Source: Hyphomicrobiales bacterium (lineage in GTDB: Bacteria > Pseudomonadota > Alphaproteobacteria > Rhizobiales > OSC116). Taken from it: 64,000 nucleotides of DNA. Position 1 is the first letter of the stretch; every line of letters starts with the position of its first letter. Below, piece by piece: positions 3,199-59,794 of this stretch. The stretch is from the NCBI GenBank assembly GCA_002401855.1, contig NVUH01000010.1:19009-83008 (forward strand). Direction: 5' to 3'. The notes below the pieces were generated by a model. That model was given only the letters and a program-made list of their open reading frames with translations. It was not told the origin of the DNA and did no database searches. The position numbers and the translations under genes are program-made.

Positions 3199-3213
3199 TT
3201 GAATGGAAATATT

Positions 3214-3498
3214 ATGAGTGAGATGGATGTTGAAGGCTTGAATGATGGCGTGGGTTCATCAGGCGTGGCGCGTGATCGGTTGAAAACTTTTATCGAGCGT
3301 GTTGAGCGTTTGGAAGAAGAGAAAAAAGCCATTACGGATGATATGAAAGAAATATTCGCCGAAGCCAAAGGCGAAGGTTTTGATGTTAAAGTTATCCGCA
3401 TGATTATCCGCATCCGTAAACAGGATAGTAATGAGCGGGCTGAGCAAGAGGCGATATTGGATTTGTATCTGCATGCTCTTGGTATGGCTGATAGTTGA
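3214..3498 (+). CDS. gapR: DUF2312 nucleoid-associated protein (GapR-like)
   Basis: Close match to Caulobacter GapR as I remember it: [14 protein letters not shown]...[25 protein letters not shown]....EAILDLYL. I prefer ATG 3214 over TTG 3199. Confidence 0.8.
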
Positions 3499-3513
3499 TA
3501 TGTAGATGACTTT

Positions 3514-3958
3514 TAAATGAGACTTCTAGAGAGTTGGCGGAAGTGTTGCTCTGTGTTGGCTGTAAAAAGAAAGTTGACTGGTAATTGAGGCTCTGGAAGT
3601 CTGCATTTTTACGCCCACCTTTCGGTGGGCTAGTGGCCCCTGCGGGCGCTTGCCTCCGCAAGCTTGCTAAGCCACTCAGCCGCTGGTCGGATGAGAATTC
3701 GGCATCCCAATCAACTACATTACGCTTAGTGAGCTTGAGTTTGGCGAAACTCTGCATTTTGGTGCGTCCCGCAGTTTCTGAATTTGTTGCTTGGTGCTAT
3801 ACTGCCTATCGTGGGAAAAGGGTCCGAAGCTTTAGGCTGAGGCAAGCGCGACTGCGCGTCGCCGTTAGGCGTGGCAAGAGAGCGGAGCGAACGCACGCTA
3901 GTGCTACTAGCTCACCGATAGGTGCGCGAAAAAAAGAGAGGCTGCGCCGAACGTAGAG
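3514..3958 (+). repeat. Intergenic mosaic repeat, locus A (one long unit)
   Basis: GC-rich block filling the convergent gapR/mepK-like spacer. It shares modules with 20430-21151 and 40449-40885: a 5' hairpin module, the ~100-nt core, a tail ...cattacgct...cgaaac...ggtgc...ttctgaatt, and gtggcaagagagcggagcgaacgcacgc...gccgaacgta. Confidence 0.85.
3590..3688 (+). repeat. Mosaic repeat core copy A (hairpin cluster)
   Basis: gctctggaagtctgcattttt-acgCCCACCtttcGGTGGGc-tagtgg-cccctgcgggc-GCTTGCctccGCAAGC-ttgctaagccactcagccgctggtc. It differs from 20651-20750 by 5 substitutions and 1 indel. Confidence 0.9.
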
Positions 3959-11458: not shown

Positions 11459-11596
11459 ATGACCAAAAAACAACATCCAGCAATGGACTATAAAATGCAT
11501 AATGAAATGTATGCGACCTTTATTAAAGGTTCGATATATACGGGCATTTTTTGTATTGTGCTTACCATTTGGGCAGTGATTGCCATCGCCACTTAA
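11459..11596 (+). CDS. small membrane protein, aa3-type cytochrome oxidase subunit IV-like
   Basis: 45-aa ORF not in the track: MTKKQHPAMDYKMHNEMYATFIKGSIYTGIFCIVLTIWAVIAIAT. The HPAMDY..H...Y..F motif plus a single TM helix matches the small COX4_pro_2-type family, which I recall sitting upstream of pntA in Alphaproteobacteria. Confidence 0.6.
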   Translation: MTKKQHPAMDYKMHNEMYATFIKGSIYTGIFCIVLTIWAVIAIAT

Positions 11597-11650
11597 TCAA
11601 TGTTATTTAATATAATGTTACTTAATACAATGTCATTTAATATAATGTCC
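11591..11650 (+). repeat. Tandem 15-bp direct repeats (about 3.5-4 units) upstream of pntA
   Basis: aatgttatttaatat (11599-11613), aatgttacttaatac (11614-11628), aatgtcatttaatat (11629-11643), aatgtcc (11644-11650), preceded by the partial unit acttaatc. The array contains two TATAAT hexamers. Confidence 0.85.
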
Positions 11651-18371: not shown

Positions 18372-18526
18372 CTAGTTTTCCATTTTAAAGATTTACGCCT
18401 TGTTTCATGAAAATGGAGCAAGGTTTTTTTGTTTTAGACATTATGAATTTCAGACATATGTCTCATATTATTTAACAAGTATACTTGTTAAAAGTACCAT
18501 ACGGTAGCGAATGGAGGGCGTGGCGA

Positions 18527-20425
18527 ATGGGCAATTATAGCAAAATATATCAATCATGGCAGCAACAGCCAGAGGCGTTTTGGGCAGAAGCAGCAAAATT
18601 GATTGATTGGGTTAAACCTTTTGATAAAATACAAGGCGAGTTAGACGGGTTAGAGCGCTGGTATATTGGTGGACAATGCAATATGGCGTATAATTGCCTT
18701 GATCGACATGTCAATGCTGGGCTCGGCGACCAAGTGGCGTTGATTTATGACAGCCCGGTTACGGGTAAAAAACAGCAATTTACATATGCAGAATTATTGG
18801 TTGAAGTTGATGCCTTTGCTTGTGTGTTGCAAAATACGCAAATTGCCAAAGGTGATCGGGTGATTATATATATGCCGATGGTGCCCGAGGCGGCGATTGC
18901 CATGTTGGCTTGCGCGCGCATTGGGGCGATTCATAGTGTGGTGTTTGGCGGGTTTGCTGCACCGGAATTGGCGGCGCGAATTGATGATTGCGCACCTAAA
19001 TTAATAGTTGCGGCATCTTGTGGCATTGAGCCCAACCGCATTGTTGAATATAAGCCTTTATTGGATGAAGCGATTGATATTGCGGCGCATAAGGTAGAAA
19101 AAACCATTATTTTACAGCGCTCTGAACATGTCGCCATTATGCATGACGGTGTAGATGAAGATTGGCAAGAGCTGGTAAATACGGTTAAAGCCACTGATCA
19201 GCAATGTGCGCCCGTGGCTGTGCTGGCAACTGATCCGCTTTATGTGCTTTATACATCAGGCACGACAGGCACGCCAAAAGGTGTGGTACGAGACAATGGC
19301 GGTTATATGGTGGCGCTGAATTGGTCGATGAAGGCAATATATGACATTGATGCTGGTGATGTGTTCTGGGCGGCATCAGATGTTGGCTGGGTGGTTGGCC
19401 ATAGCTATATTGTTTATGGGCCATTGTTGCAGGGCGCAACTGCGCTTATGTATGAAGGTAAGCCCATCGGCACACCTGATGCTGGGGCGTATTGGCGGGT
19501 GATTGAAGAGTATAAAGTCAAAAGCCTATTCACGGCGCCAACGGCTTTGCGGGCGATAAAAAAGCAAGATCCCGAAGGTAAACTGATGGCTGATTATGAT
19601 TTGTCAGCGTTTGAAGTGTTGTATCTGGCGGGTGAGAGGGCTGACCCTGACACGATAAAGTGGGCAGAACAACATTTGAAAGTGCCAGTGATTGACCATT
19701 GGTGGCAAACAGAAACAGGCTGGCCAATTGCCGCTAACCCGATGGGCATTGAACAGCTGCCCGTTAAATACGGCTCCTCAGCTAAGCCAATGCCAGGTTA
19801 TGAAATTGTGGTGGTTGATGATGAAGGTGTTCCAGTTGCCGCAAATGCAACGGGCAATATATTGATCAAGCGCCCCATGCCACCAGGATGTTTGCCCACC
19901 TTATGGCAAGCGGATGAGGTGCTGAACGAAAAATATTATGCTAATTTTGAAGGTTATTATGAAACTTCGGACGCGGGATACTTGGATGAAGATGGCTATT
20001 TGTTCATTATGGCGCGGACTGATGACATTATCAATGTGGCGGGGCATCGTTTGTCAACAGGTGCGATGGAAGAGATTATCGCTGGCCATAAAGATGTTGC
20101 CGAATGCGCGGTGATTGGCATTGCCGACAAATTAAAAGGCCAGATGCCGATTGGCTTGCTTATTTTAAATGATGGGGTCAATAGGCCACATGAAGAAATA
20201 GAGGTGGAATGTCGGCAAATGGTGCGCGAGGTGATCGGCCCCGTGGCGGCTTATCGCACGTCTATTGTGGTTGAGCGTTTGCCCAAAACCCGCAGTGGTA
20301 AAATACTACGTGCGACAATGCGCAAGATTATTGATGGTGAAGCCTATAAAGTGCCCGCGACGATTGATGACCCTGAGATATTGGTTGAACTGACCGCGCG
20401 GTTTAAGGATGTGGGATTGATCTAG
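18527..20425 (+). CDS. acyl-CoA synthetase, propionate--CoA ligase-like (Acs/PrpE family)
   Basis: ORF 18485-20425. I prefer ATG 18527 (RBS ggaggg 9 nt upstream). AMP-binding motifs are YTSGTTGTPKG, YLAGER and TGWP, with a C-terminal PKTRSGKILR. The N-terminus resembles PrpE. Confidence 0.85.
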   Translation: MGNYSKIYQSWQQQPEAFWAEAAKLIDWVKPFDKIQGELDGLERWYIGGQCNMAYNCLDRHVNAGLGDQVALIYDSPVTGKKQQFTYAELLVEVDAFACVLQNTQIAKGDRVIIYMPMVPEAAIAMLACARIGAIHSVVFGGFAAPELAARIDDCAPKLIVAASCGIEPNRIVEYKPLLDEAIDIAAHKVEKTIILQRSEHVAIMHDGVDEDWQELVNTVKATDQQCAPVAVLATDPLYVLYTSGTTGTPKGVVRDNGGYMVALNWSMKAIYDIDAGDVFWAASDVGWVVGHSYIVYGPLLQGATALMYEGKPIGTPDAGAYWRVIEEYKVKSLFTAPTALRAIKKQDPEGKLMADYDLSAFEVLYLAGERADPDTIKWAEQHLKVPVIDHWWQTETGWPIAANPMGIEQLPVKYGSSAKPMPGYEIVVVDDEGVPVAANATGNILIKRPMPPGCLPTLWQADEVLNEKYYANFEGYYETSDAGYLDEDGYLFIMARTDDIINVAGHRLSTGAMEEIIAGHKDVAECAVIGIADKLKGQMPIGLLILNDGVNRPHEEIEVECRQMVREVIGPVAAYRTSIVVERLPKTRSGKILRATMRKIIDGEAYKVPATIDDPEILVELTARFKDVGLI

Positions 20426-20650
20426 CTACCTCTCTTTTTTACAACTCTCATACATTTCAGTGAGCGCTACAGCGGCCGTTCGAAGCCGCTGCCGTTTAAC
20501 GCGCGGTCGGCTAGCGCAGTATGCGAAGCGTATGGAGCGCACGCAAGTGTCAACAGAGAGGCTTAAGCCGAACGTATAAATGAAGTACCCGAGTGTTGGC
20601 AGGATGCTTCCCTGTATAGGCTGTTGCAAGACAGTTAGCTGGTTTTTAAT

Positions 20651-20750
20651 GCTCTGGAAGTTTGCATTTTTACGCCCACCTTTCGGTGGGCTAGTGAGCC
20701 CCTGCGGGCGCACGCCTCCGCGTGCTTGCTAAGCCACTCAGCCGCTGGTC
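20651..20750 (+). repeat. Mosaic repeat core copy B1 (hairpin cluster)
   Basis: Same as 3590-3688 except c->t at position 12, one extra a, and GCTTGC..GCAAGC replaced by GCACGC..GCGTGC, so pairing is preserved. Confidence 0.9.
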
Positions 20751-21000
20751 TCGTGCTGGTTCACCACCCAACCTAACCTCATTACGCTGAGTTGGCTCGA
20801 ATGTGTCGAAACTCCGTATTTCGGTGCACCCAACATATTCTGAATTAGCAGTGAGCAGCCCGATCGTGGCAAGAGAGCGGAGCGAACGCACGCAGTGCTA
20901 ACAGAGAGGCGCAGCCGAACGTATAAATGCAGACTTCCAGAGCCTCGGCAGTAGTGCTACCCAGTATAGGCTGTATAAAGACAGTTGGCTGGTTTTTGAT

Positions 21001-21075
21001 GCTCTGGAAGTTTGCATTATGTTTGGCACTGCGTGCGTTCGCTCCGCTATCTAGCTAAGCCACTCAGCCGCTGGT
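21001..21075 (+). repeat. Mosaic repeat core copy B2 (variant lacking the hairpin cluster)
   Basis: gctctggaagtttgcatt, then gcactgcgtgcgttcgctccgct (reverse complement of 20876-20898), then ctagctaagccactcagccgctggt. Confidence 0.85.
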
Positions 21076-21151
21076 GAAACGCAGATTCACCAGCCAACCT
21101 GACCTCATTAAACTGAGGTAGCGAGAGTGTGCCGAAGCTTGGAGCTTCGGT

Positions 21152-21189
21152 GCAAAAATAAAACCCGCAGAGGATGCCTCTGCGGGTTT
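21152..21189 (-). terminator. Rho-independent terminator after the DUF1013 gene (minus strand)
   Basis: 13-bp stem aaacccgcagagg / cctctgcgggttt with a 3-nt loop. On the minus strand it is followed by ttttattttt. Confidence 0.85.
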
Positions 21190-21218
21190 GGAATGTTTGA
21201 ATTCTGTGGTCACTCAGC

Positions 21219-39738: not shown

Positions 39739-40023
39739 ATGGAACTGGATCACACTATTAGGCAAAGCCTGTTAAACTTAGAAAAATCATTTGATGCGCT
39801 GGATAACGCACTGATGAAGCAAGGCAGCGGTGCGACTGGTAATGATGGTATGCGTGATGAGCTGAATATGTTGATTGAAGACAAGAACCAATTGACCGTG
39901 CAATTGGATAAAGCCGAAGCTAAAATAGGGGTGTTTGAAACGGCTAATCTGCAGATAGAAAACCGGGTTGATACGGCGATGCAGCAACTGTCTTCATTGC
40001 TTAGTGAAGATGGTGGTGAGTGA
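39739..40023 (+). CDS. small coiled-coil protein (DUF4164-like), upstream partner of zapA
   Basis: 94 aa, entirely heptad-like. Its stop overlaps the zapA start (gtgaTGa). A conserved position in Alphaproteobacteria, from my recollection. Confidence 0.55.
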   Translation: MELDHTIRQSLLNLEKSFDALDNALMKQGSGATGNDGMRDELNMLIEDKNQLTVQLDKAEAKIGVFETANLQIENRVDTAMQQLSSLLSEDGGE

Positions 40024-40397
40024 TGGCTGAAGTGATTGTGACTGTCAATGGACGGGCTTTTCCTATTTCGTGCAACCCTGGCGAAGAAAATCATATTGCT
40101 GAATTGGCTGAATATTTAGACGTGCGGGTGCGGCAATTTAGAGATACCGGTACGGTGCATGGAGATTCAAAACTATTTTTGTTGGCAGGATTAACTGCGG
40201 CTGATGAATTGTTTGAAGCGGTTGGACGGCTTGAGGCGCTTGAACAAGAAGTGCAGAGTTTGAAACGTTTTTACGATATGAGTAATAGAGAGAAGCTAGC
40301 GGCTGAAGCTAGCATTGTAGAGGTGTTGGATAAAGTGGCTGAGCGGGTGCAGAAGTTGACTGAGCAGGTTGAAGCGGGCATGAGCCGTGATACCTGA
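40020..40397 (+). CDS. zapA: cell division protein ZapA
   Basis: 125 aa. V.VNGR.F.I.C..GEE......A..LD N-terminal domain plus a coiled-coil tail. Confidence 0.8.
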   Translation: MMAEVIVTVNGRAFPISCNPGEENHIAELAEYLDVRVRQFRDTGTVHGDSKLFLLAGLTAADELFEAVGRLEALEQEVQSLKRFYDMSNREKLAAEASIVEVLDKVAERVQKLTEQVEAGMSRDT

Positions 40398-40448
40398 TAC
40401 TGTTTTGAGCGCTGCAGACTAACCGTAAATTCAGCATTTCTATCTAAC

Positions 40449-40885
40449 CCTTTTTTCCACAACTTCCATACATATCAGTGAGCTTAAGCGAACGTATAAA
40501 TGAAGTACCCGAGTGTAGGCAGGAGTGCTAACTTTCTTATGTCTTTACAGCGGAAAATGCTGGTTCATTGGTTGAGATTCCTGCGCAAAGTTTTCAACAT
40601 CATAACTTTTCAGCCATTACTGGGCAGCGTCCTGTCTAAGCTCTGGAAGTCTGCATTTTTACGTTCGCTACGCTCTCTAGTGGGTCCCTGCACCCCGAGG
40701 GCACTTCCTCGCTACGCTCACGGCGCGGGCGCTTGCCTCCGCAAGCTTGCTACGCGCTAACCGCCCGACGGCCGGTCGGCCTTGTCTCAGCCTGTCGGCT
40801 TCGGACGCTTTTACCAAGATAGGCAGCGCTGACTGGATGGCACGTAGTTTGGAAACGAAGAGTATGCAGTGATGCTGAATTTGGT
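40449..40885 (+). repeat. Intergenic mosaic repeat, locus C (divergent unit)
   Basis: Shares cttttttNcacaactNNcatacatNtcagtgagc and gaacgtataaatgaagtacccgagtgtNggcagga with locus B. Carries the core start gctctggaagtctgcattttt at 40640 and the GCTTGCctccGCAAGC hairpin at 40731-40746. Also holds an inverted copy (40781-40826) of the locus A module at 3803-3846. Confidence 0.85.
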
Positions 40886-40924
40886 TGAAAAATAGCTTTC
40901 ATTATCTAGTGTTTTGCCTTACAT

Positions 40925-41080
40925 ATAAATGGCTGCGCGGTTGGTGTGGTGGTATTTCTCCGGGGCCTTACTTTTCTCGAGGGAGCTGACCCTGATTAGA
41001 TCGTGGTCTAGTTTATTTGGCGCCCACCTTACTTTAGGTATCCCGAGATCTTGATCAACTCACGGCCAGCGCGGTACCAT
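40925..41080 (+). ncRNA. ssrS: candidate 6S RNA (boundaries approximate)
   Basis: Position between zapA and the 5-formyl-THF cyclo-ligase gene is the classical ssrS locus in proteobacteria. tggctgcgcggttg (about 40930) can pair with caactcacggcca (about 41060), and ttctccgggg with cccgagat, giving an interrupted long helix. I could not confirm a full 6S fold by eye. Confidence 0.45.
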
Positions 41081-41096
41081 AATATAGAGGGTGTTT

Positions 41097-58537: not shown

Positions 58538-58630
58538 TTAAAAATTCTTGACTTTAGTTTGGCATTCTAATATTTGTGTTGGTGGGACACCTCTCCCCAA
58601 CGAGAGGCACTTTATCTGTGAGGATAACAT

Positions 58631-59794
58631 ATGACTGTTATTATCAAACCGGCTTTGCGTCCGGAAAATACGCATTTTTCTTCTGGTCCATGTTCAAAAC
58701 GGCCTAATTGGTCGCTCGATGCGTTAAAAGACGCTGCCTTAGGCAGGTCTCATCGCTCTAAGCTTGGCAAAGCAAAACTTGCTGATGCGATTGAACTGAC
58801 AAGGGAAGTTCTTCAAATTCCTGCTGATTATAAAATCGGCATTGTACCTGGCTCAGACACTGGCGCGGTTGAGATGGCTCTATGGTCTATGCTCGGTGCG
58901 CGCGGTGTCGATATGCTGGCGTGGGAAAGTTTTGGCGCTGGTTGGGTGACCGATGTGGTCAAACAGCTTAAGCTTGAAAATGTAACCTTGCGCGATGCCG
59001 AATACGGCCAATTGCCTGCGCTTCGCCACGTTAATTTCGACAATGATGTGGTCTTCACATGGAATGGCACGACATCTGGTGTGCGTGTGCCTAATGGCGA
59101 TTGGATTGCGGATGACCGTAAGGGGCTTACGTTTTGTGATGCCACAAGCGCGGTGTTTGCCAATGACTTGCCATGGGATAAATTAGACGTCACTACATTT
59201 AGCTGGCAAAAGGTTTTGGGTTCAGAAGGTGCTCATGGCATGCTGATCCTCAGCCCTCGCGCTGTTGAGCGTCTTGAATCTTATACTCCTGCATGGCCGT
59301 TGCCAAAAATTTTCCGTCTTACTAAGGGTGGTAAATTGATTGATGCCATTTTTACTGGTGCTACAATCAATACACCGTCTATGTTGGCGGTTGAAGATTA
59401 TTTAGATGCGCTCAATTGGGTGAAAGAAATTGGTGGCTTAGACGCGATGATTGATCGGGCTGATCGTAACGCCATTGAGATTGCTGCATGGGTGGCCAAA
59501 GCTGATTGGGTCGATTTTCTACCCGAAAATGCTCACAATCGCTCTAATACATCTATCTGCCTAAAAGTGGTCGATGCTGATATTCTGGCATTGGACGCCA
59601 AAGCCCAAGCAGTATTTGCTAAAAAGATTGTGGCATTGCTTGATGCCGAAGAAGTTGCTTATGACATTGGTTCATATAAAGATGCACCTGCTGGTTTGCG
59701 TATTTGGGCAGGCTCGACCATCGAGACTTCCGATATCATTGCATTAACACCTTGGCTGGATTGGGCGTTTTCCACAGCCAAAGCTGATCTTTAA
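58631..59794 (+). CDS. serC: phosphoserine aminotransferase (long alphaproteobacterial type)
   Basis: 387 aa with [14 protein letters not shown] (PLP-Lys region). Followed by serA. Confidence 0.85.

Follow-up and report, generated by a model that had tools for sequence, protein, structure and literature searches.

A family of hairpin-forming intergenic repeats in a small group of marine alphaproteobacteria

Introduction

What kind of element fills three intergenic spacers of one bacterial genome with the same GC-rich sequence modules, and how did it come to lie there? This question is raised by a 64,000-nt stretch of a Hyphomicrobiales genome (contig NVUH01000010.1, positions 19,009 to 83,008; hereafter the window, with positions counted from its first letter), and above all by the spacer that follows the acyl-CoA synthetase gene prpE. 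An earlier note, made from the letters alone, had taken the modules for a dispersed mosaic repeat of the BIME or RIME type, an analogy that we find reasonable. We show here that they belong to a real repeat family, free of genes and able to form hairpins, which had not been described before and which is carried by a small group of marine alphaproteobacteria; we found no account in the literature of repeats in OCS116 or in the metagenome-assembled genomes (MAGs) discussed below. With a probability of about 0.6, we read the family as an ancient, non-autonomous foldback element, similar to miniature inverted-repeat transposable elements (MITEs) and REPINs, that has been reshuffled by recombination between its arms and is co-transcribed with upstream genes as hairpins in their 3' untranslated regions (3' UTRs).

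Three spacers of the window share one repeat family

The modules are common to the spacers 3' of gapR (locus 1), 3' of prpE (locus 2) and between zapA and ssrS (locus 3), and are found nowhere else in the window. The exact 18-mer GCTCTGGAAGTYTGCATT, which forms the core of the repeat, occurs at five sites, against 0.17 expected from shuffled sequences (none of 100 shuffles reached five). Four of these sites are on the plus strand (3590, 20651, 21001 and 40640) and one is on the minus strand (20926-20943), so that the core copies do not all point in the same direction as had been claimed. A repeat search connects the three regions by direct blocks of up to 149 nt (D1-D8, D13, D16 and D20) and by several inverted pairs (I1, I2, I4 and I5). 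Within the window, nhmmer searches with family profiles and blastn-short searches with the modules place the family at 3514-3955, 20426-21154 and 40448-40885 only. The GC content is 53% in the gapR 3' spacer, 53% in the prpE 3' spacer and 49% in the zapA-ssrS spacer, compared with 44% for the window overall and 27-39% for the remaining 17 spacers that exceed 120 nt. The earlier description of a dispersed, GC-rich, modular and non-coding family that shares one module set among gene-3' spacers is therefore borne out.

The flanking genes had also been named correctly: gapR at 3199-3498 (PF10073), the acyl-CoA synthetase gene at 18485-20425 (prpE; the closest named homologs of its product are propionyl-CoA synthetases) and zapA at 40020-40397. 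The elements start 16 nt (locus 1), 0 nt (locus 2) and about 50 nt (locus 3) past the stop codons, and no terminator-like site is predicted between stop codon and element at any of the three loci, which agrees with the earlier reading. At locus 2 the start needs a small correction, from 20430 to 20426, directly after the TAG stop codon of prpE (20423-20425).

Each copy is a long palindrome of cassettes

The anatomy of the repeat was derived from an alignment of the window copies with the best copies of relatives, from a blast start/stop map on a 447-nt consensus, and from the contexts of more than 100 core occurrences. Each copy is a long palindrome of cassette-like arms with two alternative asymmetric inserts (M2 or U; M5-M6). 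Module M1 (TAAATGCAGACTTCCAGAGC), listed as a 5' module in the earlier note, is the reverse complement of the core M3 (GCTCTGGAAGTCTGCATTTA). Since the inverted repeat I5 (3587-3613 against 20920-20946) matches at 96%, M1 is an inverted core. The junction, in which M7 (GGCAAGAGAGCGGAGCGAACGCACGC) is followed by M8/M9 (..AGAGAGGCnnAGCCGAACGTA) and then by M1, is the reverse complement of the core, H and M4 (..CACTGCGTGCGTTCGCTCCGCTCTCT). The view of the repeat as a mosaic of modules thus holds for its modularity and variability, but the modules are not free, independent pieces; they are the complementary arms of a palindrome together with two alternative inserts.

A full copy measures about 400-550 nt, and its two arms, which are complementary to each other, reach ~150-190 nt or more. 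An arm is a string of short, optional cassettes, some of which are small GC-rich palindromes, and at least eight cassette arrangements are found from GAACGCACGC to the core. In the fullest copies, the arms extend outward via CAGTGAGCGCG..GTTCGAAGCC.. to a sharp terminus, ..AACTCTGAGTTTCYRTCTRCCCCTCG.., beyond which the flanks are unrelated. One copy of the MAG Hyphomicrobiales DT_99 (L055, 820-1260) is a nearly perfect 440-nt hairpin with a minimum free energy (MFE) of -290.8 kcal/mol. The asymmetric centre between M1 and the core is either U (~125 nt) or the short form M2 (~57 nt), and the spacings of inverted core pairs are 56-57 nt or 124-125 nt only (13 measurable cases). The second asymmetric insert, M5-M6 (~200 nt), is located between M4 and M7, where the arms succeed each other in the opposite order. 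In head-to-tail arrays the U/M2 and M5-M6 inserts alternate, and the units meet at a junction in which ..GAACGTA is followed by TAAATG..; the motif 'tataaatg' that had been pointed out at 20575 and 20922 is this junction. The features of the window, with their positions and strands, are as follows.

3514-3955, plus strand: locus 1 (gapR 3' spacer), one unit with M1 (degenerate), M2, core M3, H, beta arm, M5, M6, M7, M8 and M9; nhmmer E=4.5e-131 against the family profile.
3514-3611, plus strand: inner hairpin of locus 1, in which a degenerate inverted core (3514-3533) pairs with the core GCTCTGGAAGTCTGCATTTTTA (3590-3611), with the M2 loop (3558-3582) between them; seen in the sequence and in the RNA fold.
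3612-3667, plus strand: GC-rich palindromic cassettes of locus 1, namely H (CGCCCACC-TTTC-GGTGGGC, 3612-3630) and the beta arm (3635-3667) with the hairpin GCTTGC-CTCC-GCAAGC.
3668-3870, plus strand: asymmetric interior M5-M6 of locus 1, which contains TAAGCCACTCAGCCGCTG; from the alignment of 26 copies.
3871-3955, plus strand: left-arm modules of locus 1, M7 (GTGGCAAGAGAGCGGAGCGAACGCACGC), M8 hairpin and M9 (..GCCGAACGTA); direct repeat D20 is 100% identical to 20865-20893, and inverted repeat I4 pairs with 21031-21061.
20426-20576, plus strand: start of locus 2, with the cut-off outer terminus M0 (20426-20457), the outer left arm (CAGTGAGCGC..GTTCGAAGCC..) and M9; in alignments it matches the outer arm of the complete palindromes of DT_99 and the NORP MAGs.
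20577-20923, plus strand: unit a of locus 2 (347 nt), with M1-star (AAGTACCCGAG variant), M2, core, H, beta arm, M5, M5b, M7 and M9, without M6.
20924-21154, plus strand: unit b of locus 2 (231 nt), with M1, M2, core, M4 (alpha arm) and M5, ending before M6.
20866-21058, plus strand: long hairpin over the a/b junction of locus 2, in which M7-M9-M1 (left arm, 20866-20957) and core-M4 (right arm, 21001-21058) form the stem and M2 the loop; inverted repeat I2 at this junction is 33 nt long and 91% complementary.
21161-21189, T-run on the minus strand: terminator hairpin between the locus 2 element and trcR, outside the family.
40448-40885, plus strand: locus 3 (zapA-ssrS spacer), with M0 (40448-40475), an M9 variant (40476-40496), a hairpin element of M1-star, U and core (40497-40661), right-arm cassettes with the beta hairpin among them (40662-40750) and finally an inverted M6 (40751-40829).
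40487-40835, no strand: segment of locus 3 flipped relative to the orthologous spacer of NORP194 (blastn).

Locus 2, which had been described as a ~347-bp tandem duplication, holds two unlike successive units, a (347 nt) and b (231 nt), that are 76-89% alike over their common modules; this two-unit array was not called by Tandem Repeats Finder. Both units are present in the ortholog of the related MAG NORP194, and the arrangement is therefore old.

The core GCTCTGGAAGTYTGCATT itself is not self-complementary, and the palindromic cassettes (H, beta, GCGC/GGCC) are diverse and are not the repeated unit. Within M5, TAAGCCACTCAGCCGCTG is almost invariant over 26 diverged copies, with variable surroundings (for example at 3668-3687, 20730-20749 and 21056-21075 of the window). 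This stretch may be a protein-binding or recognition site. Nested small MITEs, with an inner hairpin placed inside an outer palindrome, were also considered and were dropped, as the direct CGAACG-TA-CGTTCG join is absent from every locus even with one mismatch allowed.

Distribution of the family among genomes

One genome per species was scanned with the core pattern, which returned at least 84 tiles, and 63 of these come from four related MAGs (counted by contig prefix). Among the matches listed, Alphaproteobacteria bacterium NORP194 accounts for 30 tiles, OCS116 cluster bacterium NORP83 for 19, Hyphomicrobiales DT_99 for 12 and tPB_Alph1 for 2. These 63 tiles contain at least 89 repeat blocks and carry many of the family modules. 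The remaining tiles among the matches listed are lone chance 18-mers in unrelated phyla, without any other family module. The comparison with related genomes that the earlier note had asked for thus finds the family to be abundant and not confined to three places. A fifth relative, TULL18, also has the family. The window organism is close to NORP194 (PrpE 94% identical, coding DNA ~91% identical, synteny kept).

No family match was found in a plasmid collection (blastn) or in viral contigs (pattern search), and an M5 18-mer query against JGI metagenome contigs gave five matches, all of them bare chance 18-mers without another module. Judged by these matches, the repeat family is lineage-restricted.

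Some amplification methods are known to produce palindromic chimeras, and chimeric inverted repeats created by assembly or amplification would resemble the elements described here. The family is found at the same loci, with syntenic flanks, in at least six assemblies obtained independently of one another (the window, NORP194, NORP83, TULL18, DT_99 and two Logan run assemblies), which rules out such an artefact for all practical purposes.

The repeats are concentrated behind stop codons

Spacer occupancy was counted in the family-bearing tiles, which were chosen for containing a copy; this choice leaves the comparison of spacer types inside the tiles valid. Repeats occupy 32 of 59 convergent spacers (54%), compared with 25 of 260 tandem spacers (10%) and 1 of 55 divergent spacers (2%; Fisher p = 4e-13 and 6e-11). 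All blocks lie between open reading frames (ORFs), and their outer termini are mostly 0-15 nt past a stop codon. In NORP194 (L085, 5903-5914), the TGA stop codon of prpE lies inside the outer terminus AACTCTGA and the protein ends in ..GLIASNKL. In the window (20417-20440), the protein ends in ..GLI and the TAG stop codon abuts the cut-off terminus. The stop codon inside AACTCTGA means that in NORP194 the repeat reshapes the C-terminus of PrpE and supplies its stop. Orientation relative to the flanking genes follows no rule; between same-direction genes of the relatives, there are 6 sense and 5 antisense copies when normalised to M5.

The copies are old, inherited and rearranged in place

The spacer between prpE and trcR is 793 nt long in the window, 670 nt in NORP194 and 560 nt in TULL18, and it is 57 nt long in L089, a Hyphomicrobiales MAG whose PrpE is 76% identical and whose spacer holds a bare terminator hairpin only. 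In the filled spacers, the elements are inserted between the stop codon and this conserved terminator (21161-21189 in the window), which is kept in L089 and in every filled relative. Two more pairs of empty and filled sites were found (L015/L047 and L010/L029). A further prpE contig, from a Logan assembly (L086, SRR5988124, 2062 nt), stops 68 nt past prpE, at the repeat edge.

Each of the three window loci also carries the repeat in NORP194, NORP83 or both, with other unit numbers and cassettes. The orthologous gapR 3' spacers of NORP194 and NORP83 hold two units, compared with one in the window. In the zapA-ssrS spacer, the segment 40487-40835 is inverted relative to NORP194 (L052), with 78% identity over 349 nt (blastn) and collinear flanks of 78% and 97% identity. 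Downstream of the inverted element, the window and NORP194 share 97% identity over the 6S promoter region (40869-40940). An inverton was considered for the flipped segment and was rejected, as there is no promoter-like site inside it and no recombinase is encoded in the window. The 6S RNA (40927-41081, 54.9 bits) is found in a conserved arrangement of zapA, ssrS and the 5-FTHF-cyclo-ligase gene.

M5 paralogs have a mean identity of 79% within and between genomes alike, and the nearest neighbour of a copy is often in another genome. No full-length pair exceeds 93% identity; there are no young copies, and recent transposition was rejected on this ground. The family therefore expanded before the genomes split, without a recent burst. 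The occupation of the same sites across genomes and the lack of young copies show that the copies are vertically inherited.

Predicted folding and coding capacity

Locus 2 (20426-21200) is predicted to fold with an MFE of -339 kcal/mol (z = -8.9 against shuffles), and the two other window loci with -190 kcal/mol (z = -3.3) and -174 kcal/mol (z = -2.9). Such stability is not telling, because any inverted DNA repeat would fold likewise. Over 26 copies, the covariation term of RNAalifold is only -0.57 kcal/mol, and the long stem is invariant, without compensatory pairs. The alpha and beta arm variants of the long stem are unpaired in 4 of the 26 copies, including window locus 1. Single changes of the G-U and A-C kinds are about equal, so that neither strand looks preferred. 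The aligned copies thus give no evidence of a selected long-range RNA structure.

In searches of the window with Rfam 15, thresholds were reached only by the 6S RNA and the serC leader, and the three loci gave only chance-level matches at E<=10; the absence of a credible covariance-model match had been anticipated by the earlier note. ARAGORN found no tRNA or tmRNA genes, and a likeness by eye of part of M5 to 5S rRNA helices was dropped because the Rfam 5S model gave no match. These results bear on the possibility that the repeats are multi-copy structured non-coding RNA genes, a new RNA family in which each gene has its own promoter. Very stable predicted folds and a nearly invariant 18-nt stretch in M5 would be expected of such genes, but this stability is shared by any inverted DNA repeat, no promoter-like site is found within or ahead of the elements, and Rfam gives no match even at E<=10. 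In addition, covariation is negligible, module content is highly variable, and both orientations relative to genes occur. We therefore regard RNA genes as very improbable.

The repeats are also non-coding. Among the 26 copies, open stretches measure 32-93 codons, and the variability by codon phase is 0.121, 0.115 and 0.126. Repeat-internal ORFs do cluster, but their frames are not conserved and codon periodicity is absent, and the coding hypothesis was rejected; a 76-residue ORF from 40539 is closed in other copies. ORFs of 101-123 residues are found wholly within repeat copies at 3404-3757 (minus strand) and 3585-3956 (plus strand) of the window and at 5945-6250 of L087. Those inside locus 1 have 117 and 123 residues, and one of 101 residues is annotated as a gene inside a TULL18 copy. 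As their frame is not conserved, these ORFs are spurious.

Proposed origin and the evidence against it

We propose that the family arose and spread as non-autonomous mobile foldback DNA in an ancestor of the OCS116/Parvibaculales-like clade. Copies would have survived where they were least harmful, immediately behind stop codons and most of all in convergent spacers, because insertions there disturb neither promoters nor coding sequence. The inversion at locus 3 is observed, and the mosaic as a whole would result from the long arms undergoing homologous recombination and gene conversion with one another. A segment enclosed by inverted arms would be flipped, as at locus 3, arrays would gain or lose units through their direct arms, as at loci 1 and 2 compared with the relatives, and cassettes would be exchanged between copies. 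Because each window element lies after a plus-strand stop codon and before the next terminator or gene, it should belong to the upstream transcript. As parts of that transcript, the elements would form long RNA hairpins, plausible substrates of RNase III, which could act on 3'-end processing or stability.

Several observations weigh against this proposal, and the first group concerns mobility. The ~55 genes of the window are all housekeeping genes; as the earlier note had stated, none codes for a transposase, a RAYT (REP-associated tyrosine transposase) or a reverse transcriptase. A phmmer search with E. coli RayT gave no homologs among the ORFs of at least 70 residues of the window and of ~0.5 Mb of family-bearing tiles. 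A search for a parent insertion sequence (IS) among multi-copy ORFs in the 84 tiles listed returned only ordinary families (LysR, GGDEF-EAL, ABC-F and CorC). At the empty and filled pairs L015/L047 and L010/L029 no consistent target-site duplication was seen, with flanks too diverged for a strict test. As no full-length pair is more than 93% identical, past mobility is itself an inference. An autonomous partner located between half-elements was also considered and rejected, since the enclosed genes are ordinary (dnaK-dnaJ, a P-loop kinase and a hydrolase fragment).

A second group of observations concerns conservation. Between DT_99 and NORP83, the identity of elements is 0.76 overall and 0.84 in the left arm, compared with 0.47-0.60 at 4-fold degenerate sites; between the window and NORP83, the two values are 0.745 and 0.595, and between the window and NORP194, they are 0.83-0.89 and 0.79. 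Conservation above 4-fold sites points to constraint or to homogenisation by gene conversion, and would be unexpected for a purely decaying selfish element. Exchange of cassettes between copies, as proposed above, would also explain conservation above the neutral rate. Paired changes are found in the small cassette hairpins, where GCGC/GCGC is replaced by GGCC/GGCC in 4 of 26 copies and CGCC/GGCG by GGGC/GCCC, and in the beta hairpin, which has TT/AA at loci 1 and 3 and AC/GT at locus 2.

This conservation could reflect selection by the host, with RNA hairpins or cruciform-prone DNA kept as cis elements at 3' ends to protect the upstream mRNA, to block convergent read-through, or to bind a DNA-topology protein, for which BIME-2 and gyrase in E. 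coli are a proposed precedent. The elements occupy 54% of convergent spacers in the sampled tiles and lie between stop codon and terminator, orthologous copies are conserved above 4-fold sites, and occupancy is kept across genomes in which PrpE is just 76% identical, all of which would be expected of such elements. On the other hand, the long stems are without covariation and mismatched alpha and beta arms are tolerated, the hairpins have no downstream U-runs, and unit number, content and orientation vary freely at the same locus in close relatives. One relative manages with a plain 57-nt terminator spacer, and sense and antisense copies between same-direction genes are about as frequent (6 and 5). 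We consider this reading rather improbable.

The third observation concerns orientation relative to replication. By local GC skew, M5 lies on the G-rich strand in 42 copies and on the other strand in 13; for independent NORP194 blocks, the counts are ~18 and 7 (binomial p = 0.04), and where |skew| is at least 0.1, they are 13 and 4. The tracking of GC skew by M5 orientation is suggestive only. If real, it would point to a process linked to the replication strand rather than to random insertion, and it would explain the single orientation of all copies in a window that lies on one replichore. The GC skew of the window is uniformly positive (+0.01 to +0.22 per 4 kb, mean ~+0.13, without a sign change), which indicates that the entire 64 kb are on one replichore, with the plus strand being G-rich. 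In related tiles, the skew reaches +/-0.25-0.34.

A replication-linked bias is expected if the repeats are of the REPIN/BIME type, that is, if the inverted core doublets act as REPIN-like hairpins that a single-copy RAYT (HUH Y1), encoded elsewhere in the genome, copies on single-stranded DNA, and the complex loci are BIME-like clusters. The extragenic location, the inverted doublets at two fixed spacings (56-57 and 124-125 nt), the lack of a visible target-site duplication and the paired changes in small palindromic cassettes are consistent with this origin. RAYT genes are normally flanked by their own REPs, but neither the window nor any family-bearing tile yielded a RayT homolog. The conserved 18-24-nt core is not palindromic, and abundant near-identical 'master' copies are absent. 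Long-lived vertical inheritance would fit REPIN-RAYT systems as described (PMC3116915; bioRxiv 10.1101/2022.05.22.493013), whereas the arms of 150-190 nt are far above the 20-130 bp of REPs and REPINs (PMC3116915). We regard this origin as unlikely.

The same observations would allow a further reading, to which we assign a small chance: the family may be long-lived, vertically inherited and under selection, as a giant 'foldback' counterpart of REPIN-RAYT that is kept at convergent 3' ends, oriented with replication, and propagated or repaired via a hairpin or single-strand intermediate by an enzyme that has so far not been connected with repeats of this kind, or else as host 3'-end RNA hairpins or DNA-topology sites. 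An ancient, non-autonomous foldback element that was reshuffled in place remains our preferred explanation.

Comparison with known repeat families

By look and working, the family belongs to the class of bacterial intergenic palindromic or mosaic repeats (REP/BIME/REPIN, ERIC, Correia-type MITEs and RIME), and it can be filed in none of them, RIME being compared by description only. With REP/BIME/REPIN elements of Enterobacteria and Pseudomonas, which are RAYT-associated, it shares an extragenic, GC-rich, palindromic nature with enrichment at gene 3' ends, hairpin-forming inverted doublets at fixed spacing, mosaic modular clusters, long vertical persistence and, as far as the two diverged pairs show, the absence of a target-site duplication. 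In contrast, its units are 5-10 times larger (arms of up to ~190 nt, full copies of ~400-550 nt). The repeated unit of the known elements is a short (20-60 nt) imperfect palindrome, whereas the core described here is non-palindromic, and the family has no RAYT beside any sampled copy, no near-identical population and no sequence similarity to them.

The likeness to MITEs such as Correia/NEMIS of Neisseria and ERIC/IRU of Enterobacteria lies in a non-coding element of a few hundred nt with terminal inverted repeats and internal indel variants, in intergenic insertion, and in co-transcription with neighbours as long RNA hairpins, which for the present family would follow from its position. Complementary arms (tens to more than 150 nt), the sharp terminus AACTCTGAGTTTCYRTCTRCCCCTCG, the lack of coding capacity and a presence/absence polymorphism are all found in the family, as in MITEs. 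However, no TA or other target-site duplication was detected at the two empty and filled pairs and no parent IS with matching ends in the tiles listed, and the inverted repeats are far longer and modular, with two alternative inserts and tandem arrays.

RIMEs are Rhizobium-specific intergenic mosaic elements, for which PMC2873474 cites Osteras et al. (1995). They are reportedly alphaproteobacterial, intergenic and mosaic, with large palindromes, and are said to be ~100-150 bp in size and to occur in Rhizobiaceae. Compared by description, they resemble the present family in all of the first four respects and differ in size and host. No Rhizobiaceae genome is among the core-pattern matches listed, and the one Bradyrhizobium match, from a different family, is a lone chance 18-mer. 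Eukaryotic foldback (FB) transposons are alike in form only, with very long inverted arms of sub-repeats, a variable centre and a tendency to recombination and inversion; they are eukaryotic, their sequences are unrelated, and some FB copies bear genes.

If our explanation is correct, a well-delimited repeat family is added for a poorly studied, uncultured marine and subseafloor alphaproteobacterial clade. The family is unsurprising in kind and does not overturn current understanding. Its long arms, its presence at the same loci across genus-level divergence and its above-neutral conservation could make it, after REPINs, a second case of intragenomic replicators that persist for long, and it could serve as a test case for long hairpins at convergent gene ends. 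In practice, the elements break short-read assemblies, create spurious ORF calls, can supply the stop codons of neighbouring genes, and mark lineage relationships.

Other features of the window

The serC leader (69.3 bits) is located at 58580-58632, upstream of the 58631 ORF. An AT-rich 21-nt motif, CAATGTTATTTAATATAATGT, occurs three times at 11598-11648, phased every 15 nt, and the array ends 25 nt upstream of the pntAA start (11674) and is just preceded by a small ORF (11460-11597). The arrangement resembles an iterated operator or binding array.

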